NCBI GenBank assembly: GCA_045837725.1
Contig: JBEWZL010000098.1
Span: 310,001 to 374,000, forward strand
DNA: 64,000 nt
Direction: 5' to 3'
Source of the DNA: Vermamoeba vermiformis
Lineage: Eukaryota
Shown: one piece after another, positions 8,687 through 44,817 of the stretch
How the letters are laid out: each line of letters starts with the position of its first letter
Numbering within the stretch: position 1 is the first letter of the stretch
The notes under the pieces: generated by a model
The model's database searches: none
What the model saw: the letters and a program-made list of their open reading frames with translations, nothing else
What the model was told of the DNA's origin: nothing
Made by a program: the position numbers and the translations under genes

Positions 8687-11600
8687 ATGCGTGTCAGACT
8701 ATCAACACTACTCGTGCTCGTTGCAGCATTGAGCGTCTTTGCTGCTGACGGTAAGTTTTAGAAGATTTTGTGACCCCGGATCTAATTCGATTTTATTGTC
8801 AGACAACTACATCACTATTGAGCAAGGCAGCTCTCAAAGCACTTATCTCAACAATCAGTTCGCTGAGTCGTTAATACTCGTCGTCAAGACTAATCAGAAT
8901 CAACCCGCGCAAGTTCAAGTAACGCTCACGGCACCTGCTTCAGGTCCATCTGCCCTCTTCAACTCCGCCACTGGATCGTTCACGCATGTTGCTTTTACTG
9001 ACTCCGCTGGCCGAATCTCAGTCAATATGTTTGCCAATAGCAACGTGGGTACCTATACTATTACTGCTCGCGCTCCCGGTGCTTCTCCTGGTAAGTACCT
9101 AGAAAAATCCTGGATCGGATGCACAACCCGAACAAAATCTTCCGCCTTTCCTGGTAGAATATCAAATCAAGTCTAATTCTTGTTCTATTTTAGTGCAAAT
9201 TACTCTTTACAATAATGCCAACCCTGCAACCGTCAGTGTTGTCAGTGGCAGCGGCCAATCTGCAGTCGTCAACACACTCTTTGCCAACAAATTACGCGGT
9301 CGTTTGACTGACGCCTCTGGCAAGCCCGTCGTATTTGTTAACGTCGTTCTTGAGGCTCAGGAGGTCAATGGTGCCACCGGATCTTTCCCTGGCGATCTGA
9401 GCAGTCTGAGTGTCGAAACCGACACTAACGGCTACTTTGAGACCTCTATTCAAGCTGGCAAGAAGATTGGCGCGTACACCGTTGTTTCTCGCGTGCCCGA
9501 CAACCCTTCGGCCACTACTGGCACTTGGTCCCTTGTCAACACTTACGCTGCCGGTCGCTCAATCTCTGCGCGCAGTGGTGAGAATCAAGTCACGACTGTC
9601 AACACGAACTTCAGAGCTCCACTCGTCGCGTTTGTTGGTGACGAGTTTGGCAACCCTGTGCCCGACATTACAGTCACTTTCCAAATTCCTCGTGACTCTG
9701 CTGCGTTCGGCTCGTTCTTGAGCGTGCCAGATCCAAAGACTGCCACCGCCGTTACCAACACCGATGGTATTGCCATGTCACCCTTCATTGCTGCCAATGC
9801 TGTATCTGGTGGCTACACTGCTACTGCTTCAGCTGTTCTTTCTGGATCCACCAAAACTGCCCCCTTCGCGCTGTACAACAATCCCAACTACAACACGCTG
9901 ACTTACACCGTGATCTCGCCTAAGGTTCAGATCTCAACCATCGCCAACCAGCTCTTTGCCCAAGACCTCGTCATTCAAGTGACAGATCAAGGTCTCAACC
10001 CCGTGCCCAACGTCACCATCTCCTTCCAAGCCCCGACTGATCCTCTTGGCGCCACGTGCTTCTGGGGTGATTCTAACTCATACATTGCCGTCACTAACGG
10101 CACTGGTCACGTTGTAGCCCCTGCACCTCGTGCTAGCAAGATCAAGGGCAACTTCGGTGTCTCTTACAACCCAATCTCACCTACCAGAGATCCCATCTCT
10201 TTGCTCGTCAACCCTGACGTCCCTGCTGTCATCAAGCCCGTCACTGGCAGTGCTCCTACCGTTGTCAATAGTGAATTCGAGGACCCATTGCTTGCAATAG
10301 TTCTCGATCAGTTCGGCAACGGTGTCCCTGACACTCCCGTGTGGTTCTTCCAGGAGTCCGATATTGATTCTTGTTTGGCTGCTGAAGACCCCCAGACTCA
10401 ACTCACTGATGTCCCTTCGATCCTCTTCGATAACCTCCGTTGCTCCAAGAATATTGTTGGTGACTCCATTGGTAGCGTTCTGTCCTTGTCTCCTCTGCGC
10501 ATCAATCTCGTCGCTGGTACTTACAATATTGTTGCCCTTGTTGCTTCAAACTACACCGTCAGAACTACTTTCACATTGACGAACTTGCCCGCGGAAGCCA
10601 GTTCACTTGCCATTTTTGGTAACGCAACGAAGGAGGCTAAAGTCGGCATGCCCTTTGATAACCTTGAGGTCCGAGCCTTTGATATGTACAACAATTTGGT
10701 CCCTGGCGTCACTGTCAACTTCTGGGCCCCTGACTCACCTGTCACTGCGCTCGTCCAACCCTCCGCTGTCACTGGCACTGGCACTGGTGCCTCTGGTCCC
10801 CTCGGCTTGGCACGAACCAGTGCTTTAGCCTCAGAGCGCCCTGGCATCTTTGAAGTCAAGGCCAACTCTACTGGCATTGCCAACGAAGTTACCTTCACGC
10901 TCATTAACCTCGTCAATGACCCGTACCGATTGCTCTTCCGCTCCAACTCTGCTTCAGAGACTGTGGTAGACCAATTCTTCGAGGACTCATTCGTGGTGCT
11001 CGTGACTGACCAGTTCGACAACCCTGTTAAAGGCGCACTTGTCCAATTCGAAGCCCCAGACACCGACCAGACAGCGAGCGGTTACTTCACTGGCGATTCA
11101 GTTCGCTTATCAGGCGAGGACGGCTTGGTCACTGTGCAAGGTGGACAAGACTTCAAAGCCAACACAGTCACTGGCGAGTATCAACTCAAGGTCACTGTGC
11201 CTGGCTACGCTGTTCCTGCAGTCTACTTTACCTTGACTAACACTCCTGAACTCCCGCACCACTTTGACATCTTGTATCCGAACCCAGCCGATCAGATCAA
11301 CGCTGCTGTCGTCACTGAGTTCCACTTCCCCACCATCCGTCTCTATCTCCTCGACAAATTTGGCAATGCTGTACCCAACCAAGCTGTCCAATTCCAACTC
11401 ACTCCTGGTACCAATCTCGGCGCTGGCATTCCCTCTGGTCTCTTTGAAACCAACAGCTTGACTTACGTGCCACAAACCAACGGCTCTGGCTACGTGTCTG
11501 CTCGTCAAATCCGTGCCAACGAATATGCTGGTACTTTCGTTGTACACGTCAATGTCCCGGACTTCCTTGACGTGCCTGCCCTGAACCTCGACTTTTCTTT

Positions 11601-14600
11601 CTACAATAAGCCTGCTAAGCCTTATGTCATCGAGTCCAACTATGCTGCTGTCCAGACCACTGTTGCTGAACAATTTGATGGTCTCCAACTGACTGTCTAC
11701 GACGAATACGGCAACACCGTGCTCGATGACGTCACTGTGGAGCTCTCTATTGGCACATCTGATGTTGATCCCAAGGCCACTGCCTACTTCACTGACGGCG
11801 AGGACGAGAGCAGTTTCATTGCGCTGTCAACTGACAAGGGAGGAAATGTTGTTGGCATTCCGTCTATCTTCGCTAATCACTTCATTGGCAAATACACTTT
11901 GACCATTGGCGCCAAAGTTGACCAAACAGTCTACGCCCCACTTTACATTGAGTTGACTAACATCCCTGGCCCCGTCACTCTTATTGACGTCCTCACCGGA
12001 GCCAACCAACACGTTAAAGTTACCGATGATTACGAAGTCCTCGTGATCCAATTGTTTGACAAGTTCAACAACACCGTCTACTCCAAGAGCATTACTTTCC
12101 AAGTCAACGTGCTTGATAAAGCTGCAGCTGATTTCGACGGCGCTGCTACTTACACGGCAGAATCGAATGAGCAAGGTGTCGCTACTTCTGGTGTCTTCAC
12201 CGCCAACCAGATTGCCGGCGAGTTCCGAATTTACGTTGAAGTTGACAGTACTTACATCTCGATCCCTCAATTCAACATCCCCAACGACCCTTGGTACTTC
12301 CAGTTGGATGAAGCAGGTCCTCGCGAGGCAGTCGTTGACCACGTATTTGCCGATCCGATCAGCTTATCGGTCTTTGATGCCTATCACAACTTGGTGCCCA
12401 ACACTCCCGTCACTTTCACTTCACCAGCCACAGGCGCCTCTTTGTTCTTTGACTTTGAAAACGGCGACTACACCAATTACGTGCTCAGCACCAACAGCGC
12501 GGGTCACGTCAGCACTGGTGAACTCCTTGCCAACAAGATTTCAGGTGCTTACAATGTGACTGTTGCTTGCGTCGGCTACTTTGCCCCTGAAATTATCTCC
12601 TTCACCAACAAACCCGATGCCGCTTACAGACTCGCGCTACCTTCACCCGACTACAAGGTCATGGCTTTGATCAACGAACAATCCGAGACCATTCACGTCC
12701 TCGTGCTCGACCAGTTTGACAATCCTGTCCCGGGCATCACTGTCACTTTCACTGTCGTCCCTAATCCCAGCAACAACGCCAAAGGTAGCTTCCAATCGAC
12801 AGACACGACTTCCACAGGCGTTTCTGACTCCAATGGCTTTGCTTCTCCCGTTGCTGTTTTCACTGCCAACAGCGTTGTCGGTCCCTACAAGATTGTCGCA
12901 TCAGCTGAGGGTCTCGCTGACATTGACATCTCTCTCTACAACTCAAACAACGTGCCTGACATCATTTCTCAAAGCACTCCCGATCAACTCGTCCAAGCTG
13001 GTACAGACATTACTGACCCGCTCTACGTTGTTGTTCTCGATCAAGGCAGCAACCCCGCCACTGGCTACACCGTCACTTTCAGAACACCCGAGACCGGTCC
13101 CTCGTGTTTGTTCGCTAACAACAAGCACAGCGTTGCAGTCACAATCGACGAGCAAGGTAAAGCCGTTGCTCCTGCCTGCACAGCCAACGGCAACCTCGGC
13201 AAATTCAACGTGACTGCAGACACTTACAATAGCCTCTCTGTTGACATGGGCGTCACTATTCTGGTTGGCAATGCTTCGAACATCATCGTCTCCGGTGACA
13301 AGCAAAGCGTGCAAGTCACCAATGCCTATAACCCCGTTGAAGTCACCGTCACGGACTCATTCGGCAACGTTGTCTCTGGAGCTAAAGTGACTTTCACTAC
13401 ACCCGCTAGTGGGGCCTCGGCATCATTTGACGGTCAATCGTCGCTTGTTCTTCCTACCGGTCCCGACGGCAAAGTGTCAACCTCCGTACACACCTTGACA
13501 GCCAACACTGTCGCTGGTGCTTGGAACCTCAGTGTTGCCGTTCAAGGCATTGTCTTGCCCGAGCTCGTCAAGTTCACTAACACTCCTGCTGCGGCTAGCA
13601 AGTTGACACTTGTCAGCGGTGGCAATCAAAGCACTACTGTTGCAACATCGTTCAGCAAGACCATTGTGTTCCGTGCCAACGATCAATACGACAATGTTGT
13701 TTCCGGCAGCTCGGTTACTCTCACCGTCCCCGCCACTGGTGCCTCATTGGCCTTCTCTAACAGTCAGAACACGATCACTGGCACTACTGGCACTGATGGC
13801 ACTTACACCGTCAATGCCCCTACTGCTTCCACTGTTGCCGGTACTTTCTCAGTCTCCGTGACTGGCGCTGAGAGCTTTAGCTTCTCCATGACCAACACAC
13901 CTGGCGCTGTGACTCAATTCACTCGTCAGGGCTCTGCTTCTCGCACTGCCAAGGTCAACACTGCCTACACTGAGACCTTCAAAGTTCTCGCTGCTGACAA
14001 GTACGGCAACCCTCGCGGTGGTGTTAGCGTGACTTTCTTCGCTCCCACTACTTGTGCCGCTGGATCATTCGCTGGAAGTGTCTCGTCTTACACTGCCACT
14101 ACTGACGCCACAGGTGTTGCTACTTCATCCGTTTTCACCGCCAACACAGTCGCCGGCAAGTTCAACGTGTTAGCCAACACCACTAGCGTGTCGACTTCTC
14201 TCACGTTTGCCTGTGAAAACCAAGCCGGAGATGCTGCGCACATTGAAGTGAACTCGGGCAATAGCCAATCTGTCAAGCCTGCAGCGACCATGTCTCCCCT
14301 TGCTGTGATCGTCTCTGATCAGTACTTCAACCCTGTCACTGGTGCTTCAGTCACTTTCACTGCCCCTACCACTGGCTCTCGTCTCACCTTTGCTAGCACC
14401 AACACCGCTTCAGGCACCACGGACAGCGATGGTGTCGTGTCAACTGTCGCTCCTGTTGCTGGAACTGTTGCTGGCTCGTTCAAGGTTACAGCCACTAGCG
14501 GTGCACTCAGCACTCAGTTCTCGCTGACAATTGTCGCTGGCTCACCTGCCGCGCTTGCTGTCATTTCAGGCAGCGGCCAATCAGCAGTTGTCAACACTCA

Positions 14601-15675
14601 ATTCGGCTCAGCTATCTCCGTCAACGTCACCGATCAATACAACAACCTCGTGTCCGGTGCTCCTGTCACTTTCGTTGCACCTGCATCAGGTCCTTCAGCC
14701 ACCTTTAGCAGCAACACTACTGTCTTGTCCAACGCTCAAGGTGTCGCTACTTCATCGAGCTTCACTGCCACGACCACTGCTGGTTCATTTGTCGTCTCGG
14801 CCTCAGCACCTGGCACCGCTGCGGTCAACGTTCAGTTGTTCAACACACCCGCTTCTCCCTCGCAAGTTATTATCTCTGGCAAGCCGACCACATCTGCTAT
14901 CGTTGGCACCAAGTTCAGTGAACTCGCAGTTGTTGTCAAGGATCAATACGACAACACCGTCTCTGGTGTTGAAGTCACATTCAATGCCCCTGCCTCTGGT
15001 CCTAGTGGTGTGTTCAATCAAACTCAGTCGCGCCAAGCCACATCCGTGACTGGATCCAATGGTGTCGCTACTTCACCTGTCTTTGTTGCCAATACTGTCT
15101 CGGGCAGCTATTCAGTGAACGTTACTGTCGCAGGCTCTGCTGCCACTACTTCATTCGCTTTGACCAACGAGCCTGACGTCGCCTTTGCCGTGTCAATCAG
15201 CAGCGGTGACGCGCAATCCACCAGCACTGGCACACAGTTCGCACAACCGCTCAATGTGCTCGTCAAGGACAAGTACAACAACCCTGTCGCAGGTGTCTCG
15301 GTCGTGTTCGCCATTCAAGGCAACAGCAGCAGTGTCTTTGCAAACGGTCTGACCACATCCACCGTGCTCACCACGATCACTGGCCGTGCCTCGTCACCAC
15401 TCATCACTGCAGGCACTGAGACTGGTACTTTCACCGTATTTGCCAACGTCACTTCTGTAGGCTCGGTTACATTCTCGCTCTCGATTGTTGAGCCTCCTGT
15501 TGCTACCCCGGTCCAAGTCCCTGCCGCTGAAGAACCGAGTGCTCCTGTTGGATCCGCTCCTACTTCAGGCACAACTCCTGTTCGTGATGATGCGGGCACA
15601 GTGTCTTCATCCACGACTGTTGCTATTAACTCAGCAGTTGTTCTCTTGGCTACCGTCTTCTGCATCTGCTTCTAA
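8687..15675 (+). CDS. Giant secreted, GPI-type surface protein with about 20 bacterial Ig-like (Big-1/invasin-type) repeats
   Basis: Signal peptide MRVRLSTLLVLVAALSVFA; exons 8687-8751, 8803-9090, 9194-15675; repeating ~110-aa unit SGxxQ..V...F...L.V.V.DxxxNPV..V.VTF..P..G.....TD..G......AN..AG.Y.V; P/T/S linker and hydrophobic C-terminus. Confidence 0.85.
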
Positions 15676-24525: not shown

Positions 24526-24681
24526 ACATAATCTTCATGCAATCTCTTATAATTACGCCATACGGATTTAAAATGAGAATTGGGACAAAATCGATTTTCC
24601 AATTTTCGTAATTGCATATCAAGCGTTCGGTTTACAAGAAGAGCTGTATTGAGAGTGCGTTATCATATAATCAGCGCTGCT

Positions 24682-26010
24682 ATGGAACGCAACGATGATC
24701 AAGTACTGCCCCCTGAAGTGTGGTGTCACGTCTTCACTTTTATTGACGATTTTGACGATTTTATAGCTTTAAAAATGGTAAATCAATTATTTTATCAAGA
24801 ATTGCATGCCATGGATCCACTTTCCCTCGTTGATAGTGCGATAAAAATTCCAGAAGGTAAAAATTAAATTAATTATCGTAATTATTATTTTAATGAGTTA
24901 ACAGAGATTCGAAATCATTTCAAAAGCCGTCATACAATACCTACTCTTCCAACAGAGGATTTGTTGCAAGCGTAATTACCTAATTAACATTTCAAATCGG
25001 GTTGATCCGAATCTAACTTTGACGCAGAGCTGCAAGTGAGGACTCTGGTACCAAGATGCAAGTCAATGTCTTTCGAACAGTTTTTCTCGGTTCACAGCAC
25101 TGCGGAAGGACGACATTTTTGCATAGAGTTGTTGTACGTGGAACTTGTTTGACCAAAAAAACTCGTGTACTTAATGCTCTATTAGCACGGAGATTACAAA
25201 GAGGATGTTGAACCTACTATTGGTGCTGGATTCGTAAGTCTGAATTACTAACCATGTAGTATTAACTAATGGTTGCTCTAGTGTAAGGCAACACTTACGG
25301 ATTCTAGCGGAGTTGTTTCTCAAATGGAGATTGTAAGTATCATACAAGTCTTATTAACGAATTAACATTAATTTAGTGGGAGAGTCCCGGCGTAAGTGTC
25401 GACTAGAATGACACGTGTCAAAGTGTCATTTTTGGGTATCCCTTAGTAACATTACGCCACTTGCATAGCTCGAACGTTTAGCAGTTTTAGGCACAATGTA
25501 TATCCGAGGAGCACAATCGATATTTTTGTCCTTCGGCATTGACAATCGTGACAGTTTTGTGACGACGATCAATTGCAACCTGCCACAAATCTACGAGGTT
25601 GTCAGACACTTCAAACCGGAGCGACAGCCAGTCATTTATTTGCTTGGTCTCAGGTCTGACCTTGAACGCAAAGTGCCAAAAGGCGAAGCCAAAGTAAGTG
25701 TCATACAACAATTTTGACGTCAATGAATTGGATTTAAATTGTCTTTTTTGCAGGCCCTTGCCCGAGTATTGAACATCAAGTACTTTGAGTGCTCTGCTAA
25801 ATTAAATCAAAACGTGAAAGAAGTGATGGAAGAAATGAAAGATGATTTAGTAAAATCTTTACGGTACGTATTGATAGTTCGTATCAGATGCGTTATGAAG
25901 TACTTTTGAAATTAATTTGTTTCGTTAAAATAAACAGAGTAAATTCAATTCACCGGCCCAGTTTGCCGAATCGCAACACCAATCAGGATCGCAGGTGTAT
26001 AACTCAATAA
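24682..26010 (+). CDS. F-box + Ras/Rab-like small GTPase domain + CaaX protein (copy 1)
   Basis: LPPEVWCHVFTFI..LKMVNQLFY (F-box); GSQHCGRT; PTIGAGF; WESPG; LGLRSDL; YFECSAK; spliced C-terminus RRCITQ*. Confidence 0.75.
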
Positions 26011-26019
26011 ATAAATTAA

Positions 26020-26310
26020 TGCTGCTTTCATCGCACTGCTGAACGAGTGGCTGCCAGTTCTGCACGACGCGTACAAATCAGAGACTTCACAACAACAGCC
26101 CGTGATGTACTTGTGTTGGGACTCAAAGCTGATCGCGAAGCCCAGCGCCAAGTGTCAATGAATGAAGCCAAGGTAAGTGCCAAAGTAAAGTGTCAACGTG
26201 TCACCTCAGCCAGTCATTCAATCGTACCATAACCTTAAGAACCATATTTAGTTGTATTCGACAAATATTTAATTCTTTTACAGAATATTGCACGAGCGTT
26301 GAACTGTTCG
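26020..26310 (+). pseudogene. Truncated relic of a third F-box-GTPase family copy (GTPase C-terminal half only)
   Basis: Reads LLNEWLPVLHDAYKSETSQQQPVMYLLGLKADREAQRQVSMNEAK|intron|NIARALNC, with the same intron position as its neighbours but no start or P-loop. Confidence 0.55.
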
Positions 26311-26372
26311 GTATTTAGCTTGCAATCAATTTTCAAATAAATTCAATGCGATAGTGACCACAATATCCTCAA

Positions 26373-27756
26373 ATGGAGAAACAAGCACGCGCAACACTTC
26401 CACCCGAAATATGGTACCATATCCTCTCGTTCATTGGTGAGGCGGATCAATATTTACCGGATCAAAATGCCATCAATAATTTTTTCAGACGAGAAAATCT
26501 AAAATTAGTCAATCGATTATTTTACAAAGAGCTCGCGCCTCGTACTATAAAGGCGGAATTCCTGAATTTTTATAATGACGTTAGAATTTATAAAGGTAAT
26601 AATTTGATATATACTTGCACCGGAACTGACCTGCTATATAGAAAGCTTAGAATATCTACGAAAAAGAGGTTCGTTGTATTCTAAAATGCTTGAGAATTCC
26701 GGGGGAGTGTATGTTTGGTCCCGATCCAGAATTCAATTAACGATTTGCAAGCTAGATCGCAACAGGAGACGAAAGACAACACTTCAGTTTTCAACGTGAT
26801 TGCCCTTGGAATGTCGGGATGCGGAACAACGTCTTTGTTGGCCTCTTATGCAGTACGTCAACAATTTTCGATGACCGTTGAAATTCTAACGGAAGTCTTT
26901 ATCAGCGAGGACAGTACGAAGAACAACGCAGAGGAACGGTAGGCGGTGCAATTGTAAGGTCAATTTGGTCTTTTTGAAATGAAACTAATGTTGGTTCAAA
27001 TAGTACAATAAGCAATTAGTGGATCGCGACGGGTTCACGACACAATTAAACTTCGTAAGTATTGAAGAGTCTTATATATTATTATTGGCCTAACGAGATT
27101 TTAATCTAATGTAGTGGGACTTTGCTGGGGTAAGTAGATCTGCATGACACGTGTCAAAGTGACATTCAAATACGATATTATAATAATATCTGCCGTAGCA
27201 ATCGAGGTACCAGTACTTGTTAGTGAGTCAATATAAAGCAGCGCGCGCAGTGTTATTGTGTTTCAGTGTTGATGATCGGAAGAGTTTGCGGACACTCTTC
27301 GACTACTTTGTACCGGAAATGTGTAGAGCCTATCAGTGTCTTGCACCAGACGATCCTCAGCCCGTGTTATATTTAATAGGACTCAAATCTGACTTGCAAG
27401 ACCAGAGTCAAGTGTCAACTGACGAGGCGAAGGTAAAGTGTCAAAAAGTGTCAATATCAATTACCTTCGACGGACTATAATCTGGTATACAGATCATTGC
27501 ACGAGTACTGAAAATGAAGTACTTTGAGTGCTCTGCGAAATTATATCAAAATTTGAACGAGATGATGGAAGAGTTGAAAAACGACTTGCGAGGGCCTCTA
27601 AGGTACCATTTTACCTCCGCAATTAATTGTGGATTTTCTTCAGCTAACTATAACTTTCATAGAATGTCGTGCGTGGATGTGCCACCTCAATCAGTTGTCG
27701 TTGCCGGCTCCTATCCTCAGCTGGATCGAGGTTGTAGATTTTGCTTGATCCAATAA
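26373..27756 (+). CDS. F-box + Ras/Rab-like small GTPase domain + CaaX protein (copy 2)
   Basis: LPPEIWYHILSFI..LKLVNRLFY; GMSGCGTT; WDFAG|QSRY; IGLKSDL; YFECSAK; ends RFCLIQ*. Confidence 0.75.
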
Positions 27757-28301
27757 GTCTGCATTAAATGGTATTATCATATATTTCGTATTACTCTATT
27801 TCCAACTTCTCCTTGTTTCCCGTTGTGTTGTTTTTTTTTTTTTTAAAAATTAAGGCCCAAATAAAAAAAAAAAAAATTTTTTTTTTGGTGATAAAATGCC
27901 AATATTATGTTGCTAAACGTAATGGACAAAATAATTTTTTGATGATTCGATTTATTGGTCAATAGAAAAATATTTTGGATTGCTAGCAACTTACCAAACA
28001 ATTATAATAATCCGAAATTAGTTGAATAGCGATGCAAATAATTTTTTTAATTTACTTGTGGCTTGAGGTAGGATGAGCGGTGATTCAATAGTCCCACTAC
28101 TAGTAACTATTTTAAGGATCACCACAACACCTACGTAATGTCGGTTTAGACGCTCAGCTCGGTGGTCAATAAGGCGTGGTCAAGAAGCAGTCTCACCAGC
28201 CAGAAACGAGATTTCGAAAGCTCAAAATGAATTTTTTTTTTTGTGCCATTCTTCTTTACCACCCACACAACGCAAACACAACAGCCACTTACAACAATGA
28301 C

Positions 28302-29429
28302 ATGTCTTCTATCGGTCAAGCAGTAGTGATCGACAACGGCTCTGACACGATTAAAGCAGGTTTTGCCGGCCACGACGCACCTCGTTTTGTCTTTCCAACC
28401 GTCGTTGGTCGTCCTCGCCAAGCTAATGGAAGCACTTTAATTAATTCAACTTGTACTTATGTTGGTGACGAAGCTCAAAGGAGGCGTAGTTTATTGGCTT
28501 TGAAATATCCCATAGAGAATAGAATAATTACGAACTGGGACGATATGGAGCAGCTCTGGTACCACACATTCTACAACGAGCTGCGAGTAGCACCTGAAGA
28601 ACGTCCTGTCTTGCTCGCTGAAGGGTTTTGGGCCCCCAAAGCCCGCAAAGAGAAGATGACGCAGATTATGTTCGAGACGTTCAACACACCCGCCCTGTGC
28701 ATGGCCCTACAACCTGTATTGGCTCTCTTCAACTCTGGTCGTACGACTGGTGTTGTGTTGGACTGTGGTGAAGGTGTTTCGGAGGTTAGTCTTATCTATG
28801 AAGGTTACAGTTTGCCTCATTCGGCCCTGCGTTCTCCCTTGGCCGGTCGTGATTTGACAGACTACTTGATGAAGATCTTGGTTGAGCGTGGCTACTCTTT
28901 CAGCACTACTGCCGAACATGAAATCGTTCGTGACATCAAGGAGAAGCTGTGTTACGTTGCCCCAGACTTTGAACAAGACATGGCCATTGCAGCTGCGTCC
29001 TCGCAATTAGAGCGGCACTACGCACTGCCTGACGGTCAAGTGATCACGCTCAACAACGAGCGATTACGCTGTGCTGAAGCGTTGTTCCAACCTACATTTA
29101 TTGGCAGTGAAACAACTGGTGTCCACGAGATCATCTACAACGCAATCATGAAGAGTGACGTGGATATCCGCCGAGAGGTCTACAGCAACATTGTATTGAC
29201 TGGCGGCACAACGATGTTCCCTGGTTTTGCTGAGCGATTACAAAGAGAGCTGACAGCACTTGCTCCGGTCACAATGCCAGTTAATGTTATTGCACCTCCT
29301 GAGCGACAATACTCGGCGTGGATTGGAGGCTCGATACTCGCTTCGTTGCCTGAGTTCCAAGACGAGTGGATCTTGAACGAAGAGTACGCCGAATTTGGTC
29401 CCTCGATCATTCACAAAAAGTGCTTTTAA
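28302..29429 (+). CDS. act: Divergent actin paralog 1 (intronless, 375 aa)
   Basis: [67 protein letters not shown]. Confidence 0.95.
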
Positions 29430-30344
29430 GTCAAAGTCGCTGGCCATCTTAACGCAATGAGCCAATCGTTAACACAAGGCAACCAACTAAACAAGGACGA
29501 AATGACCTAAAAAAAGATGACATCAGTTAGTATACTCGTTCAATTAGCTTCTACAACCTAATATAATAGCTATCAACTGCGCCTACTTTTATGCGGCCCT
29601 TGTGGCAATAAACTTCTTACTCGTAATAGTAAATGCTCGTTCTAAGCACCAAAGCCAAATAATGTAACGCCCTGTTTTCTTAGAGCACAAACGACGTCTG
29701 TTGTAGTCACTGTCTTTCTTCGGCCAAGTTCTGTAAGCGAAGGTTATAAATGTTTTAGATCTATCAGCGGTGTTTACCAGTGCAAGTAACGGCGTTGCGA
29801 ATTAAGTTATCCATAAATATTCTCATTACGCAGCGTAATTCCTCGTAAATAAGGTTACTGAGGCGTTTAACGCCGGCTCTAGAAAGAAATCAGTTTATTA
29901 TTTTAATTTTAATAAATTAATTGTTTTAAACCGAACTAGGGTGCTAATAGAAAGTACAATTGTTTTAAATTGCTGCACAATTATTATTAATAATATTTTT
30001 TAAAATGGTAGAATTTAATTTACCTTCTAGCAAGGCGCTTGAAAGCAGGCTTAGTCACAAATGGTTCAATATGACCACGGAGCATCTTTGGGCGTCTTTT
30101 AACACCGCCTTTGCCAAGTGCTTTGCCTTCGAAGCTACGACTCGACATTTTACACTAAATAACTGGCGCACCCAAGGTGTCTATGCTAAAACACGTGACC
30201 GCAAGCGCGTAATCACCAATCAAAGTGAGATTCCGAGTTCGGGACGAAAGAAAGCTTATTTTTTGTTTTGGCAATTTCTCACTCAACAAACAACACAACA
30301 ACACAACGGCGTTTCACAACCAGACTCGCACAACAATAACAGCG

Positions 30345-31481
30345 ATGGCGTGTGCTACCGTTGGTCAAGCGGTAGTGATCGACAACGGCTCTGACACGAT
30401 CAAAGCAGGCGTTGCAGGTCACGACGCACCTCGTTTTGTCTTTCCAACCGTCATTGGTCGTCCTCGCCACGCCAATCTGTTTGGTCACAGTGGAACTCCC
30501 ATACTAAAAGACGCTTATGTTGGTGACGATGCTCAAAGGAAGCGAGGCTTGTTGACTCTGAGATATCCTGTAGAAAGAGGTGTAATTACGAACTGGGACG
30601 ATATGGAGCAGCTCTGGTACCACACATTCTACAACGAGCTGCGAGTAGCACCTGAAGAACGTCCTGTCTTGCTCGCTGAAGGGTCTTGGCTAACCAACGC
30701 GAACCGAGACAAGATGACGCAGATTATGTTCGAGACATTCAGCACTCCCTTGTTGTTTATCGCTAATCAAGCCGTCCTCGCTCTCTACAACTCTGGTCGC
30801 ACCAGTGGTCTCGTGGTGGACTGCGGCCATGGCACGACACATGTCACTCCTGTTTACGATGGTTATCCTATACCTGGCGCGATTATCAGCACAGATTTGG
30901 CAGGTTACACTTTGACTGATCGCTTAATGCACAAATTGACTCTTCGCGGCTACAGTGAGAAATCTGTCAATCGTGAAGTCGTTCGTGACATCAAGGAGAA
31001 ACTGTGTTACGTTGCCACAGACTTTCAACAAGACATGGGAAACGCAGCTGCGTCCTCGCAATTAGAGCGGCACTACACACTGCCTGACGGTCAAGTGATC
31101 ACACTCAACAACGAGCGATTTCTCTGTGTAGAACCGTTGTTTCAGCCCACTCTCTTGGGTACTGAGACACGAGCATTACATGAGATTGCTTACAATTCTC
31201 TCATGAAGAGTGACGTGGATATTCGCCGAGAGCTCTACAACAACATAGTCGTGACTGGCGGCACAACGATGTTCCCTGGCTTTGCTGAACGATTACAAAG
31301 AGAACTGACAGCACTTGCTCCAGTCACCATGCGAGTCAATGTTATTGCACCTCCTGAGCGACAATACTCGGCGTGGATTGGAGGCTCGATACTCGCTTCG
31401 TTGCCTGAGTTCCAAGACCAGTGGCTCACTGCGACCGAGTATGCCGAGTTTGGCTCCAGCATACATAAAAAGTGCATGTAA
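30345..31481 (+). CDS. act: Divergent actin paralog 2 (intronless, 378 aa)
   Basis: Same actin signatures; tandem duplicate of 28302-29429; ends HKKCM*. Confidence 0.95.
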
Positions 31482-35587: not shown

Positions 35588-38500
35588 TTACATGATGTAC
35601 ATTGCCATGGCGATCAAATACAAAGCCCAAGACCAGCTCAAGTTGATCGCGGATGCAGTTTTCATTTCCTCGTTAGGTGTGGTTACAGGAGCCACACTCG
35701 GTGTAGTTACACCAGTCGTGTCTTGACGACTCAGATTGACGCTTGCTTCGATCTGCAGAGCTTGATCGTAGCCGTCGGGGTTTTCGTCTTGCAGGGCAAA
35801 GCGTTTGGCAGCTGGCTGTGTCTGAGTATTGACGTACTTGTAGCGCACTGAGAGCGTGCCTTGAGCGGCGAAAGGAGCAACGCCGTCAACGGGGATGGGA
35901 AGGTCTGAGGGCACTATGAAGGACAAGCTGACCCAGTTCGTGCCACGACGCTCGAAGCGGGTCACAGTTGAAGTGCCTCGAGCGGTCAAAGCGCCGGCAG
36001 TGACGAGGGTGTAGGGACCAAAAGTGAAGTCAGTGAAGTTTGCGGAGCTCAGTTCAGCAGCGTTATCAGTGACAGTGACATTGGCCAAGAAATAGACGCG
36101 TTGACCAGGCAAAAAGACGTTCTTTTTGATCGTGAGAGCTTCGTCTTCGTAAGGCTCCATGTAGGCAGTCAGACCGACATCGAGTGACACTTGCGAGCAA
36201 ATGTCTTCGGACACGATGTTCATGGCGATTTGAGCCTGGTTGGTCGTGGAGTCGAGCGGGCAGTTACCTTTGAGCGCTGGGTTACAAACCACGGTGAAGT
36301 TCACTTTGTACTGGCCATCGAGTTTGCAAGCTGTGTTGGGATTGATCACAAACTTGTACTTTTGCGTGCAAGCAGTGCCTATAATGCGTTGTTAAAGTCT
36401 ATTCGTAAATGTGGGATTTAGCTGCTTACCATTGACAGTACCGCAGTTTCGACCGCCGAGGAATTCGCTGACAGTCGCAGTAAGAGGGAACGGGGTTTGA
36501 ATCACAACAGGCAGATCAAGCATGAACGGCCATTGGAGCGAGGTCGTCAGCTCGATCACACCGTTCTGAACTGTGACTTGATAGGCTTGAAATGTGACTG
36601 CGGCGAGCAAGTTGACTGAAGAGTACACATCGATTGTGGTTGTGACGGTAGTACGTTTAGGGAATCTCACTTGCATTCTGAATACGTGCCTCGTGATTCT
36701 GATTTTTGTCGTTAGAAATGACACCGAGAAGCAGTTGTAATGCCGCACTTACCGATTCAAAACGTAGCCTCTAAAATCGCCCATAAAATCGTTGTGTTCA
36801 ACGGTCAAGAAGGTCTCGTAGATGTACCAATCAGGATCGTCAATCAGAGTGAAGCCGCATCTATTGCCGATGGACCAAGGCAACGAGCTTGACCACAAAT
36901 CCTCGCAGTTGTTAGTGAAGTCCTTGTTCCAGAAGAAGCCAGGATAGTCGCACATGGCATTGCCGCCTCTGTTGTTCATCCAGTAGATCACTGTGTGCGT
37001 GCGGTTGTAGACCAAAGGACCGCGGATACGAAGCTCCATCGCACTGCAGCTGAATCCGGAAGTTGGATCGAGGACGGGGATGTTGTCAGTGGCCAACAAC
37101 TGGACAGAGTTGAATCTGTTGTTGCACGAGCTGTCGATCTTAACGTTGCAGCTGTTGCCCATCCAGCCAGAAGCGCAGGCACAGAAGTCCTTAGGACCGT
37201 CCACTGAGTAGCGAACAACACACTTGCCGTTGACGCACGTGTTAGGGCTGCAAGTAGAAGCGTAGCGAAGGATCAGTTGAGGAGGATGTTCGCCTTCCTT
37301 TGAGTCGATCAAAGTCAAGTGCGTGATGTTGGTGGTCGAAGGAACAGTGCCAACATAAGGACATTGTCTGATCACCAAGTTCTCAATGGCTTGAGTGCTC
37401 ATGGAGAGATCTTGCAAGCTCAGCGGGATTTCAATGAACTCGTTTTGGAGATTAGTCGTGATGTCCAAGCGACCAAGCAGGACGTTGGCAGTCATGCCAG
37501 AAAGAGTGCTCTGTAATAAAAAGTCAATAAGACACTCGACAACAACATCGTTTCAGTGTGACATACGTAGGTCGCAGTCTTTTCGTCCCAAGCAGTGCTG
37601 TACAAGTTATCGCGGTAGACACGCAAGCACGTAGTTTGACCGTAGGGCAAGACCAATTGACGAACGTACAACTGCAAGCTAACCTCTGTTGCGAGTTTGT
37701 TAGTACTACAATCAATGTATGTATGTATGTGCATACCGCTCAAGTAGCCGAAGCTTTCTTGGATACAGTTCGAGTCCCATTGCATTACACCAAAGGCACA
37801 TCCACCAGGGTGAGTGCGAATGTATTGGTCGTTGGTGCGAGACTGCGATTGGTTCCAGCAGCCCATAACACCAATATCTTCACCAGGGATGCGGTACAAG
37901 ACACCAATAGTGTTGGTCGGCGAAGCAATGTACAGACGTTCAACGGACGAGGCGTTGAAAGGTGACAGTGGAGTAGAGCGCAAGTCACCAGGCATTGTGC
38001 TGTAAGTGGCTGTGACTTGACCCACACTGATCAAGGGCGTGTTGACATCGGCAATAACAAGAGCCTTGAAGCTAATGACAACGTCGGCAACGGCGAGCAC
38101 TGAGTAGTACGCTGTGATGGCAGTGGGGGTAATGCTGACGTTTGTAGGATTGCCAGTAATGTTGACGCTGTTCAAATCCAACGTGAAAGAGTTGACGATA
38201 GGATTGATGATCGTGACATCGTAGGCCAAGGACTCCATGTTCGTGTACTTGACCTTGATTGCCGCTGTGATGTTTTGACCAGGAGACACAACCAATGTGT
38301 TAACGTCACGAGAGACAGCCAATGCGGGCTCAATGACGTGAGCCAATGTCAAACTTTCGGCGTCATTGCCATCAGCCCACGCGACACTGCACAGCAGAAG
38401 TTAATTCCAGCCAATAAAACAGCGCAAGCCAACTTACACAGCAGTAGCAGCACGTTCAGCACCAGAACCGACAGACGGGAGATCCAGGACAATGACAGGG

Positions 38501-41500
38501 AAGTAAATGTCCAAGTAGTCCGCAACGTCGTTTCGCATGTCAGTGTTGACCACGTTGGTGAAGTTCACTTTGAATGAATCACCGTGCGTTGACACGTTGA
38601 CGGGGCTAGAGAAGTAAGCAATCGTCTGAGTGTTAGTGCTAGTAATGGTCGGCAAGGCAACGAGTGAAAGACCCTTGGCAAGTGTGACTTCGAGTTGAAG
38701 CGTGCCAATGAACACTAATCAGGCGTTAGTAAAAAATAGAAATAGAAATGCGCAATATGTAACTCTTACTCTCAGGCAGTTTGACGCGAACGAGAACGGT
38801 GGTTTGGTTGCCAATAGTGAGCATCTGAGGAGCAGCAATGGGAGTCGTGCTACCAATAGCAGACACTAATTGCATCGAGATTTCAGGGTTCTTGCGAGGA
38901 ACAGTGATGCTAGTGTTACTGCTTAAGACGTTGCCCATAGTAGAGTTGCTGCATTGACCATATTGCAAGCGCAAGGTCTCAGTCAAAGTGACATTGGCCG
39001 AGTAGTTCCAGATGTACTCGGTGTAACGAAGAGAGAATGTTCCACCAGTCAATTCAAGTGCAGGGACGGCAATTGAGAAGCTATCTTGCGAGTAGGTGAT
39101 CGTGGAAGAAGCGTTGGTGTAAACGCTGTTGTTGAAGAAGCGCAACAGCGAGCTAGACAAACTGCTGATGGCCAAGTTGTAAGCAGGGGCCTTGGACGAG
39201 GCACTGTGTGCGATAGTAGCCAAGAACTTGACTTTGTCGCCGTTATCGAACTGTGTAAGGTACGTTAGCATTGGGCGCGATAATTTGACCTATGAACTTA
39301 CTCCACGAGCAACAGCAGAGGCGTTGACTGTTGGCATCAAGAAACCTTCGTTGGTGCTAGGTCCATCGGAGATTTCGTCATCCGCAGTGGTGTAGTCGTA
39401 CAAGTTCCAAATGTTCAAAGTAATTGCAAGACGAGGCTCGACAATTTCGAAGAACAAGTTCAACGAGCTGCTAGTGGCGGTGTTGTAAGTGAATGTAGCC
39501 GTGTTCTGCAGAGCGTTGCCAGTCTCCGAGGCAGATGACAGAACAATGCCAGTCACGTAAATCACGATATTATCGTTACTGTTCGCGACGTTGTTCGGTG
39601 CATTGGCAATGTCACCAAATGTCACCGTGAGGCGATCAGACACGACGTCGTTGTTGCTATCACTGTAAGCGATATTGACACCACCAGAAGGAGTCAATGA
39701 GGTACCGAGTGATTGAATCACTGCGTTTTGGATTTGCACGAAGGGCACGGGCATAGTGACGACTATTTGAGGAGAGACAGTGCGGCCTTCAGGGAAAATC
39801 AACGTGACTTGAAGTGTGACACTTTCACAGATAGCCAAGTCAACATAGGAAGCTAAAACGTTGTTAGAATTGAACATTAAGAATAAGTCGATGTAACTTA
39901 CGATTGAAGAACTGGCTTCCCGTTGAAGGATTCGAAGTTGACAGGACTGAGAAAGTGAAAGAGGGCGCGAGTACTGGGATAGTCACGTTGGCTCCAGTAA
40001 CTGTGTAAGACTTGGCCGCAGTCGTGACCTTGTTGCTATAGTAGGTGCCTGTAGCTCCAGGTAAAACAAACGAGGTACCCGTTTGGATGTTCGTGGCAAC
40101 TTTGACGGTGTAGGTCACAGTGAGAGTTGAGCCGAGGGTGAAGGTGGCAGTGGAGATGGAGATCACACCATTGCTCACAGATACAGTGCCAGTGCCAGCA
40201 GTGATGGTAGGATTACCTTGCAACGTTACTGTTGAAGGAACAGTGTCGGTGATGGAAATGACATAAGCAGGGGCTTTGCTAGAGGCGGTAGGATTGGTCA
40301 ACGACAAAGTAACAACAATGCTGTCGTCTGCGTCAACAGGGCCGGTGTTCGAAGTCGTCTTAGTCAACGCCAGGGTCGGCTCGACGAACTCGATGTTGAA
40401 GGTAGCACTCCTAGTGGCGGAGGTAGCAAGATACACGATCGTGGCAATAGATCCCTTCAAGGCAGCTAAACAAGACTGTTAGCACCACCAATTTTGCTTC
40501 TTTAATTGAGTTACGTACCACTACCGACATTAGATCTGTTGGGAGCAACACGAGAAGAAATGAGCACGGTTATGATATCGCTGTTGTTGGCAACGTTATC
40601 CGGTGTGTTGGTCACTGTGCCGAGGTTAAAAGTGCAAACTCCGGCAGAGATTGTAGCGGTTGCGTTCATCGGGGCACTAGTGATGAAAAGATCAGTTTAA
40701 CATAATCGGATAGGGACGTGACTTACGCATAGCTCAAGCTGGAGCCAATGAAGGCAATAGTACAGCTGAACATTTCCAAATAAGAGCCGTCTGTTTGATT
40801 GACTTGGAACTTGAGCTGAGTGTTGGGAGTAGTTCCCTCAGTGAATCGATAAGAAGCCAAAAAGTTGAGGTCTTCACCAAGTGCCAAATCGTCAACAGTT
40901 GTTGAGTATTGAGTCCTAGCAGTTTCAGTCAAGCTGGTGAAGGGAAGTGAGATGGAAACGCTCGGAGTAGCCGTTGTGATCCTAACGTTGCCAGCCAATG
41001 AGTAGGACTTGGCGGTCGCCACTTCATCAGCCGAGTAGTAGATGCCAGACACAGCGTTTGTGATCTGAGTATTGGGAGCGATGGTGTTGGAGAGCAGCAC
41101 TTTGTATAAGATCACAATCGGTGCTTCGGTGACATCGTAGACAGGCACAGTAAGACCGATTGATGTTTGACCAGTGCTGTTGCCAGAGGTAAGCGTGAAC
41201 TTGTTCGATGCAATGCCCGTGACCGTAGTTTGACCGGCAATCAACGTGTATTCAGCGGGCAAGAAATTGGTGATGACCATGCCGTAGCTGGGCGAGTTGG
41301 TTGTCGCTGTAGGGGAGATAGTGATGGTGAAAGTCAATGTATCACCACCGTCACCGCTGGTCGGGGTTCCGGTAATGGTCAGGGTGTTCGCAGGCTCCAC
41401 AATGTCCGTCAAGAAGTTGACTACTAGTTGTCTGTTGGTGTGGTAGTTCAATGTTCCTTTGAGGATTACGCCGGCATTTCTCGTGTCAGTGTTCATTACG

Positions 41501-44500: not shown

Positions 44501-44817
44501 GGATGAATGAAGCTAGTGACGCCTTTAAAGACCTGTGGGGAGATCGTCATGTCCAAAAATGTTGCCAAGTTTATATTGACTGCTTGGCGATTAGAGGTTG
44601 TGTCAAAAGGCACGATCACATCCACGTAGGGGCCGTAGCCGAGAACATCGCCTCCATTACGAAATTCGATCTTAAAATTCAAGCTATCTCCAAATATAAT
44701 TGAGCCAGAGAGTGAATTGAAATTTGAGACTGGAGCCGGTGCCGCGTACACCGATCGCAGAACACAAATCCAAAATAATATAAATAAATGGCTTTTTAGC
44801 CTGGCATGCGTTAGCAT
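35588..44817 (-). CDS. Giant secreted GPI-type surface protein: DUF11/isopeptide-like Ig repeats, DNRLRE-like domain, EGF, unnamed C-terminal module
   Basis: Signal peptide (HLFILFWICVLRSVYA); repeated DLAxGE..TFPEG..P and GD...T.T.....PAY...I.D units; LQLYV..W.E.TATY..S.EG..PPQL; EGF CSPNTCVNGKC..CACASGWMGNSC; hydrophobic tail; many short introns. Confidence 0.75.

Follow-up and report, generated by a model that had tools for sequence, protein, structure and literature searches.

Two tandem paralogous genes lie on the forward strand of the 64-kb window, the whole stretch of DNA analysed here. Gene 1 runs from its ATG at 24682 to 26010, and gene 2 from 26373 to its stop codon at 27754-27756; both models were built by hand. 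With its 5' UTR, gene 1 occupies 24641..26010, the UTR start being at least 24641, where an RNA contig of a close relative begins. Each gene has nine exons. Those of gene 1 are 24682-24856, 24905-24971, 25028-25133, 25186-25233, 25282-25332, 25377-25391, 25469-25693, 25754-25863 and 25938-26010 (stop codon included); those of gene 2 are 26373-26595, 26642-26708, 26756-26852, 26906-26953, 27004-27054, 27115-27129, 27199-27432, 27493-27602 and 27663-27756 (stop codon included). The encoded proteins, of 289 aa and 312 aa respectively, are 36% identical (102 of 283 aligned residues). Every one of the 16 introns is GT..AG, with a length of 44-77 nt; their phases run 1,2,0,0,0,0,0,2 in the same order in both genes, and five exon lengths are common to the pair (67, 48, 51, 15 and 110 nt). 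The G domain is split across exons 3-8 in both genes, with a 15-nt microexon bearing the DxxG position. Rfam gave no match anywhere within the window. Hints as to the lineage pointed to an amoebozoan as well as to a small invertebrate, and a PDB search with actin did not decide between them, two chains named 'Actin' being almost level with insect and human actins.

The last four residues directly precede the stop codon in each gene and form a CaaX box: CITQ in gene 1 (25996..26007, forward strand, with the stop codon and an overlapping AATAAA after it) and CLIQ in gene 2 (27742..27753, forward strand), which has an extra Cys three residues upstream. A Rab-type CC/CxC C-terminus is found in neither. 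All four relatives whose C-terminus is known also carry CaaX (P0005, P0026, P0010 and P0025; their endings are CLIQ, CLIQ, CSIL and CSIQ). A CaaX box whose last residue is Gln is of the farnesyl type.

The fold of the G domain is that of the Ras family. Exon 7 exceeds the PF00071 gathering score of 21.6 in both genes (26.7 bits in gene 1, 38.0 bits in gene 2); exon 8 does so in gene 1 (24.1 bits) and falls below it in gene 2 (18.0 bits). A family profile matched 667 small-GTPase chains in the PDB at E <= 0.001, among them chains of Ral, Rab5 and R-Ras with E-values from 1e-13 to 1e-10, with Ral, Rab5, R-Ras and Rab9 so nearly tied that no Rab subfamily is assigned. The nucleotide-binding motifs are eroded. 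Neither P-loop fits the consensus GxxxxGK[ST]: gene 1 has GSQHCGRT (25089..25112, forward strand; Lys to Arg) and gene 2 GMSGCGTT (26808..26831, forward strand; Lys to Thr). The forward-strand microexon reads WESPG in gene 1 (25377..25391), where the Asp of DxxG is Glu and Leu follows in place of Gln, and WDFAG in gene 2 (27115..27129), where DxxG is kept and Gln comes next in exon 7; relative P0025 has the canonical WDTAGQ. Leu takes the place of the NKxD Asn in 11 of the 12 family sequences, with Lys/Arg and Asp retained; LKxD also occurs in the more distant G proteins P0009 and P0014, whose P-loops are intact. The SAK motif (G5) is retained in gene 1 and gene 2. Judged from these motifs, with the P-loop Lys lost and Leu in NKxD family-wide, both G domains are probably not normal switches. 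The earlier note had described tandem paralogs with a G domain on small exons and a CaaX terminus, and the gene models, the PF00071 matches and the CITQ and CLIQ endings bear this out.

Upstream of the G domain lies an F-box-like motif, encoded on the forward strand at 24703..24798 in gene 1 (residues 8-39; PF12937 E 0.011, PF00646 E 0.021, both sub-threshold) and at 26394..26534 in gene 2 (residues 8-54 by alignment; PF12937 E 0.062 over residues 8-25, sub-threshold), where a 13-residue insert stands ahead of the last helix. F-box models are the sole Pfam matches in four of four exon-1 sequences, at E 0.0016-0.062 and in the same N-terminal register. All four fall short of the gathering score, with best values of 16.0, 13.5, 18.6 and 16.1 against 24.3 bits for PF12937; the best PF00646 score is 15.2 bits against 20.5. 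The Atlas language-model look-up ranked an F-box cluster first for both genes (0.94 for gene 1, 0.91 for gene 2), and its ten best named matches all belong to the F-box family. The pattern L-P-P-E-x-W-x-H, K-x-V-N-x-L-F-Y-x-E-L is invariant in the three exon-1 sequences compared (the two genes and P0024), and these columns are those typical of the F-box consensus. An AlphaFold model of the region has three helices at a low pLDDT of 65.5; Foldseek with this low-confidence model gave no match at E <= 0.001, and PDB sequence searches with exon 1, whether as a single sequence or in profile form, gave no chain at E <= 10. No Skp1 gene lies within the window. We regard the N-terminus as likely an F-box on this profile evidence. 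The N-terminal F-box of the earlier note thus stands in that only F-box profiles match and Atlas places F-boxes first, but every match is below its Pfam gathering score.

The F-box part meets the G domain at intron 2, which in gene 1 is a forward-strand GT..AG intron at 24972..25027. It measures 56 nt there and 47 nt in gene 2, similar to the remaining introns, so that a terminator and a promoter cannot fit in it. Starting at the ATG of exon 1, the frame stays open across exon 2 (67 nt) and on into the G domain, and is kept in both paralogs despite their 36% identity.

RNA-derived contigs of the close relative (run X7) were aligned to both genes. Gene 1 is expressed in that relative, at an even depth of about 5 across exons 1-9, and is mostly spliced as modelled: seven of its eight introns are removed, including the one between F-box exon 1 and exon 2. 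GT..AG joints were found for introns 1, 3, 4 and 7, and a further joint lies at most 3 nt from intron 8. The removal of introns 5 and 6 is seen from contig loose ends, one of which, at 25469, consists of the exon 5 end and the microexon fused to exon 7. The joint of exon 2 to exon 3 (24971 to 25028) was not found among the relative's RNA contigs: one contig with exons 1-2 stops close to where exon 2 ends, and a second one spans 24983-25099 unspliced, from inside intron 2 into exon 3. Nor is there a spliced-leader-type loose end at the exon 3 acceptor (25028) in these contigs. For gene 2, intron 5 is spliced (a loose end at 27115 has the exon 5 end joined to the microexon), one contig keeps intron 6, and exon 7 has coverage. 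A look-up of sequencing runs containing this DNA listed no RNA run. Three further RNA runs (X13-X15), labelled with the species of the best-matching DNA run, gave no read lying wholly on gene 1 or gene 2, which says little on expression because the neighbouring gene was barely covered too. Small-share metagenome runs do not enter this evidence. The proposed joining of F-box and G-domain exons in RNA is thus supported in part, by the removal of seven of eight gene 1 introns, that at the exon 1-2 joint among them, but the exon 2-3 joint itself was not seen.

The family is real, small and lineage-restricted. A profile search with exon 7 gave 46 matches in public data, about 16 of them family members and all of these fragments; among the collections searched there is no full-length annotated relative. 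When 1.84 billion representatives were searched by phmmer with exon 7 of gene 2, 22 matches reached E <= 0.001, none with an F-box plus Ras layout, and a word-index search with gene-2 exon 1 for longer proteins gave no match. Scans of metagenome contigs (with alignment A1, then P0008) confirmed no relative's locus. Among genome contigs, the exon-1 profile gave 54 pattern matches, of which one was confirmed: an F-box protein of Legionella sp. whose likeness does not go beyond the motif. The search for an F-box plus Ras architecture thus recovered some 16 family fragments but no full-length protein.

Gene 1 is the most divergent member of the family, its exon 7 being 33% identical to that of gene 2, and it differs from the relative's transcripts by nine non-synonymous and five synonymous changes, which fits relaxed constraint. 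Gene 2 has no non-synonymous and two synonymous differences from the relative. Between gene 1 and gene 2, at 36% identity, synonymous sites are saturated. A relic of a third paralog lies between them at 26020..26340 on the forward strand, comprising the 3' part of exon 7, an intron and a decayed exon 8, frameshifted between frames 0 and 2. It matches by tblastn at 52% over 25 aa (26113-26187), and its repeats D2 and D3 have 74-80% nucleotide identity to gene 2. This decayed copy supports the tandem turnover that had been proposed for the locus. A further shared feature is a palindrome, TGACACGTGTCA, which with AAGTG forms a 17-mer in intron 6 of gene 1 (25409..25425) that gene 2 repeats at the equivalent position of its own intron 6 (27145..27161); a literature search for the 12-nt palindrome returned unrelated primer matches only.

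Rab40 couples a GTPase fold to CUL5 through a SOCS box, and RhoBTB to CUL3 through a BTB domain; the G domain of RhoBTB is atypical. The likeness to our genes is a GTPase fold tied in each case to a cullin-ligase docking motif, and the earlier note's comparison is apt in this respect. The docking motif of Rab40 and RhoBTB is C-terminal to the G domain, whereas here it is N-terminal and F-box-like and would serve Skp1/CUL1. No SOCS or BTB Pfam match was found in exons 1, 3, 7 and 8. One report mentions, in its available part, a complex of Rab40A with Cullin 5 (PMC4657161).

Prenylated F-box proteins form another point of comparison. Legionella AnkB is one of them. Yeast Rcy1 is described as an F-box protein with a CAAX box that acts in endosomal recycling (PMC2175155), and FBL2 as an F-box protein for which a conserved prenylation site is predicted (PMC1847700), in the parts of those papers available. 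With our genes, in which the F-box is a probable one, these three share an F-box and a C-terminal CaaX, the layout of a membrane-anchored Skp1 binder, but their target-binding parts are LRR, ANK or Sec10-like whereas here the part is a GTPase fold. Roy1 is presented as a non-SCF F-box protein which, together with Skp1, binds a GTPase resembling Rab5 (PMC3084679), and according to the available portions of both accounts Rcy1 and Roy1 work alongside Rab GTPases, in Skp1 complexes that are not SCF (PMC2175155, PMC3084679).

Among the closest architectures that we found is TbFRP of the Euglenozoa, described, in the part of the paper available, as a FYVE-F-box-Ras-like GTPase of about 64 kDa whose N-terminal FYVE binds PI3P and directs its targeting (PMC3593210). 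There, as is probable for our genes, a single polypeptide has its F-box ahead of a Ras-like G domain and is both membrane-targeted and lineage-restricted (PMC3593210). The comparison is one of architecture, not sequence: the proteins here lack FYVE (there is no match in exon 1) and begin their F-box-like motif at residue 8-9, with CaaX instead of FYVE and with the P-loop Lys missing. TbFRP is reported to be rapidly cleaved, and its authors proposed that the F-box couples its own turnover to SCF (PMC3593210, as far as the available text goes). The ARF family is likewise described, in the available part of its account, as having lineage-specific fusions to F-box or BTB, as well as TRIM23 (PMC8358228), so that small-GTPase folds have been recruited into ubiquitin-ligase adaptors, F-box ones included, in a lineage-specific way (PMC8358228). 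Their G domains are of ARF/ARL type, whereas ours are of the Ras family (Ral/Rab5/R-Ras-like) and would be CaaX-anchored. In the literature, judged mostly from titles and the beginnings of abstracts, we found no description of an F-box-Ras-like-CaaX family. The architecture is less new than the earlier note implied: this CaaX-bearing Ras-like form is new, but F-box-GTPase fusions are already in print (PMC3593210 and PMC8358228, in the parts available), and prenylated F-box proteins are known too.

We put at about an even chance the reading that the gene pair encodes lipid-anchored F-box adaptors whose substrate-binding domain is a pseudo-GTPase. Such a protein would begin with an F-box-like helical motif (from residue 9). 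A linker of about 50 residues with little conservation would lead from there into a divergent G domain of Ras/Rab type, and a CaaX box with Gln in last place would close the chain. The CaaX would be farnesylated and act as membrane anchor, and the F-box would dock Skp1, whether as part of an SCF (CUL1) ligase or, as with yeast Rcy1 and Roy1, within a non-SCF Skp1 complex. Because the P-loop Lys is lost in both copies, and DxxGQ in gene 1 too, the G domain may no longer cycle as a switch. It might instead serve as a constant protein-binding module, selecting targets that normally recognise Rab/Ras-like GTPases. A bolder form, which we think somewhat unlikely, is a membrane-anchored SCF(CUL1) receptor in which a farnesylated F-box protein uses a nucleotide-dead Rab/Ras-like fold to capture GTPase-recognising proteins for ubiquitination; candidates for capture would be GAPs, GEFs and effectors, or GTPase-targeting effectors of pathogens. 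That such proteins might serve as decoys against pathogen effectors, as the earlier note suggested, would be a further conjecture.

As a rule, F-box proteins act as adaptors and are themselves auto-ubiquitinated. The fusion could be real and yet have no other substrates, its F-box acting on its own protein as a built-in degron or regulator for rapid SCF-coupled self-turnover; we think this somewhat unlikely. The same idea was put forward by the TbFRP authors for their rapidly cleaved protein, in the available part of the text (PMC3593210), and expression here looks low (the X7 depth of ~5, and no whole reads in X13-X15), but the present observations fit substrate recruitment equally. Rather less probable in our judgement, the N-terminus may be F-box-like by chance or descent and bind no Skp1, leaving atypical prenylated Ras/Rab-like proteins with a helical extension. 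The unreached Pfam gathering score in all four exon-1 sequences, the empty PDB sequence and fold searches, and the insert within the gene 2 motif would fit that. Against it stand the F-box models as sole matches in one register in all four sequences, the first place of the Atlas F-box for both genes, and conserved columns that are typical of F-boxes.

Two further alternatives we consider quite improbable. Perhaps F-box and GTPase are separate products: retention of intron 2 would yield an F-box peptide of about 81 aa from gene 1, and the GTPase would start at an internal ATG or come from an mRNA begun at, or trans-spliced to, the exon 3 acceptor. The unspliced contig and the missing exon 2-3 joint favour this, as do the read-through of gene 1 intron 2, which meets a stop after one codon, right at the donor, and the ATGs just before the G domain (five codons ahead of its first strand in gene 1, and within exon 2 of gene 2), from which a stand-alone GTPase might start. 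But exon 3 of gene 2 has no ATG upstream of the P-loop, the phase and frame of exons 1-3 are conserved in both old paralogs, neither intron 2 is unusual in its length or its splice sites, all exons are evenly covered, and no leader end marks 25028; unspliced pieces are moreover expected from pre-mRNA, because gene 2 intron 6 is also unspliced in the same low-depth data. It is just as doubtful that decay towards the relic state is under way in gene 1, and perhaps in gene 2 as well, leaving a duplicate that is transcribed but non-functional. For gene 1, the loss of the P-loop Lys and of the Asp and Gln of DxxGQ, its position as most divergent member, its nine non-synonymous against five synonymous differences and the adjoining dead copy would agree with decay, but its frame is intact over nine exons, its splice sites are canonical and used in the relative, and CaaX and SAK are kept; gene 2, for its part, has no non-synonymous differences.

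In the collections searched, the family is absent from annotated proteomes and present as exon-sized fragments only, which shows that such architectures are missed by prokaryote-style gene calling on eukaryotic contigs. Links between small GTPase folds and cullin ligases have arisen several times, in SOCS-box Rab40, BTB RhoBTB, TRIM23, the ARF F-box fusions and TbFRP. With a CaaX-anchored F-box-Ras/Rab-like family whose P-loop has no Lys, these examples would be joined by one where the GTPase fold probably serves as bait and not as switch. If the bolder SCF(CUL1) receptor reading is true, these proteins would be a CUL1 counterpart of Rab40/CUL5 and RhoBTB/CUL3 and, being encoded by an amoeba, would offer a model, on the host's side, of how Legionella effectors combine F-box and CaaX.

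The tandem F-box-small GTPase-CaaX genes are real and were correctly described in the earlier note; they are unannotated and narrow in range, and one key joint in them is unproven. Manual modelling, based on translation in three frames and on splice signals, places gene 1 at 24682-26010 (+; 9 exons, 289 aa) and gene 2 at 26373-27756 (+; 9 exons, 312 aa), so that the first ATG and last stop fall exactly on the limits first assigned (24682..27756). All 16 introns are GT..AG, measure 44-77 nt and have higher AT than the exons. Because the intron phases are identical (1,2,0,0,0,0,0,2), five exons match exactly in length (67, 48, 51, 15 and 110 nt) and 102 of 283 aligned residues are identical (36%), we regard the genes as old duplicates that have kept their structure. 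Between them, at 26020-26340, lies a frameshifted third-copy relic comprising part of exon 7, an intron and a decayed exon 8; it is nearer to gene 2 (74-80% nucleotide identity), and it supports the tandem turnover that had been proposed. No further family copies were found in the 64-kb window.

Exon 7 of each gene matches PF00071 above the cutoff. A profile of 12 family sequences retrieved Ral, Rab5, R-Ras and Rab9 chains from the PDB at nearly equal E-values (1e-13 to 1e-10), which places the domain in the Ras superfamily and in no particular subfamily. The P-loop lysine is replaced by Arg in gene 1 (GSQHCGRT) and by Thr in gene 2 (GMSGCGTT), a loss that should cripple normal nucleotide handling. 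Both genes retain the Switch-I Thr and the SAK motif; DxxGQ is lost in gene 1 (WESPG, then L) and kept in gene 2 (WDFAG, then Q), and one relative, P0025, has a canonical WDTAGQ. NKxD reads LRSD in gene 1 and LKSD in gene 2, Leu occupying the Asn position in 11 of the 12 family sequences (the exception is GNKSD in P0018); since P0009 and P0014, more distant G proteins whose P-loops are intact, have the same Leu, it does not by itself mean a dead enzyme. P0009 is 527 aa long and carries a tandem of three Ras-family G domains, all with an intact P-loop and with LKSD replacing NKxD; it may be distantly related to the domain studied here. The C-terminal CaaX boxes seen earlier are present in both genes (CITQ in gene 1; CLIQ in gene 2, with a further Cys three residues upstream) and in 4/4 relatives whose C-terminus is known (CLIQ, CLIQ, CSIL and CSIQ); the signal is conserved. 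A CaaX box ending in Gln predicts farnesylation.

Exon 1 has Pfam matches to F-box models only: PF12937 (E 0.011) and PF00646 (E 0.021) for gene 1, PF12937 (E 0.062) for gene 2, and E 0.0016 and 0.01 for two exon-1 relatives from the protein collection, P0024 and P0023. All four sequences stay under the Pfam gathering scores. Every match keeps to one register (residues 8-39 against model positions 3-33), and gene 2 has an insert of 13 residues ahead of the last helix of the motif. Both look-ups in Atlas, a language-model search of protein clusters whose scores are leads only, gave an F-box cluster the top rank (0.94 and 0.91); 10/10 of the best named matches share that family. Rotifera appear in one of the Atlas F-box clusters, with just 2 members. 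Among prokaryotes the exon-1 profile matched one ORF only, of 511 aa, in a Legionella sp. genome (L001, 4641-6176, +). This ORF has an F-box-like motif below threshold (E 0.0012) and, after it, weak matches to beta-propeller models; its likeness to the window's motif (41% over 20 residues) is at motif level only.

The family is small. Searched with phmmer against 1.84 billion representatives, gene-2 exon 7 matched only 22 proteins at E <= 0.001, and the family profile 46 at E <= 1e-6, about 16 of which are family members (E <= 1e-21; 72-171 aa), all of them exon-sized ORFs or partial transcripts; two of the transcripts come from a protist-oriented source. None of the 12 longer matches scanned has an F-box, these being ordinary or tandem Ras-family proteins and one ankyrin protein, and the protein collections searched hold no full-length annotated member. 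Two fragments near-identical to gene 1, P0023 with the F-box exon and P0029 with exon 7-8, each lie on a contig of 2665 nt, so they probably derive from one locus of the close relative introduced below. No account of an F-box-Ras/Rab-like-CaaX family was found in the literature searched.

None of the sequencing runs recorded as RNA contained the stretch. Transcript evidence comes from contigs of a close relative (X7), which match the window at 95-99% and clearly derive from RNA. For gene 1, whose contig starts at 24641, GT..AG joints lie exactly as modelled at introns 1, 3, 4 and 7 and within 3 nt at intron 8, and loose ends at 25469 and 25472 carry the 15-nt microexon preceded by the last part of exon 5, which shows the removal of introns 5 and 6 as well. 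Splicing is therefore evident at 7/8 introns, including the F-box exon 1-exon 2 joint. In gene 2, one contig splices exon 5 to the microexon and retains intron 6, and exon 7 is covered. Three RNA-seq runs under the species label of the best-matching DNA data (X13-X15), of which about 46-48% each was read, gave no whole reads on either gene; 77 of 80 placed reads are partial matches. These stem from other, spliced transcripts of the family (at least two), and the letters inserted in them agree with P0005 and P0026. Expression of the family is thus shown, though these two copies were undetected there; coverage of the neighbouring gene was very low too (depth at most 0.65).

In this family, intron 6 may be detained in a regulated way. 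The transcript-derived P0005 and P0026 are called as 'complete' ORFs that start at a Met inside exon 7, as expected with intron 6 retained. A 17-mer holding the perfect palindrome TGACACGTGTCA is identical in intron 6 of both paralogs (25409-25425 and 27145-27161), at the same place just after the microexon, in genes whose proteins have diverged as far as they have. The 12-mer occurs 6 times in the 64 kb, the other copies being at 3710, 17842, 24294 and 55555; for its 10-mer core the count is 7, where 0.04 would be expected (core only at 47015). One of the copies is found about 390 nt ahead of the gene-1 ATG. The palindrome probably acts as a cis-regulatory site, either one for a factor of E-box-like specificity or an intronic splicing/retention element.

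Pfam identifies a SAP-domain gene, a mitochondrial carrier, a Gb3-synthase-like glycosyltransferase and an M13 peptidase among the neighbours. Directly downstream of gene 2 are two tandem intronless actins (28173-29429 and 30213-31481, +), beyond a spacer that is rich in AT and has long runs of T and of A (27840-27890). The two best PDB matches of the actin are amoebozoan chains, nearly tied with animal actins. Together with the Rotifera entry in Atlas and the protist-oriented transcripts, this gives conflicting hints to the source, a free-living small eukaryote that is either an amoeba or a micro-invertebrate. An uninterrupted 2190-aa ORF at 9103-15675 (+), with five bacterial Ig-like Big_1 domains, has 52% G+C and a strong negative GC skew in contrast to its surroundings, and looks acquired from bacteria. 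Pieces of a GH28 (polygalacturonase-like) gene at 52484-53990 (+) and of a thermolysin-type M4 peptidase at 55672-56449 (+) may represent additional genes of a bacterial or fungal kind. Long open frames (up to 523 aa; 47-50% G+C, strong GC skew) at 35591-44546 (-) had no Pfam match at E <= 1e-4 and may form one large unknown gene.

The F-box part and the G domain are very probably joined in one product. In both old paralogs one open frame leads from the ATG of exon 1 into the G domain by way of exon 2, which is poorly conserved and equally long in the two; introns 2 are ordinary (56 and 47 nt) and too small for a terminator plus promoter; gene-2 exon 3 has no ATG upstream of the P-loop; and X7 depth is even, about 5, over all exons. 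Against this, the exon 2-exon 3 joint across gene-1 intron 2 (24972-25027) is absent from the joints seen in X7: the contig with exons 1-2 ends at about the end of exon 2, and a second is unspliced from 24983 into exon 3. Read-through into this intron meets a stop after one codon, and gene 1 has an ATG just ahead of the G domain, gene 2 one within exon 2, from which a stand-alone GTPase could start; we consider separate F-box and G-domain products highly improbable. It is distinctly unlikely that the N-terminus is no working F-box. Exon 1, alone and as a profile, had no match at E <= 10 in a PDB sequence search, and its AlphaFold model (3-sequence alignment; three helices, pLDDT 65.5) had none at E <= 0.001 with Foldseek; the columns invariant among gene 1, gene 2 and P0024 (L-P-P-E-x-W-x-H and K-x-V-N-x-L-F-Y-x-E-L) fit the F-box consensus. 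By its motifs gene 1 is the more decayed copy. Compared with the transcripts of the relative it has 9 non-synonymous and 5 synonymous changes, and gene 2 has 0 and 2 (small numbers). That gene 1 is on its way to losing function seems very unlikely.

Rab40 and RhoBTB are known parallels to a GTPase-ligase fusion. TbFRP of Euglenozoa combines FYVE, F-box and Ras-like GTPase in one protein (PMC3593210); F-box and BTB fusions in the ARF family are lineage-specific innovations (PMC8358228); Rcy1 is an F-box protein bearing a CAAX box (PMC2175155); Roy1, an F-box protein of the non-SCF kind, binds a Rab5-like GTPase (PMC3084679); and a conserved prenylation site is predicted in FBL2 (PMC1847700). 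The F-box of TbFRP has been proposed to serve turnover of the protein itself, a role that we think unlikely here. We infer instead, at roughly even chances, a farnesyl-anchored Skp1-binding adaptor: the putative F-box would dock Skp1, in an SCF or in a non-SCF manner like Rcy1 and Roy1, the predicted farnesyl group on the CaaX box would anchor it, and the Ras/Rab-like fold, no longer cycling, would serve as its target-binding module.
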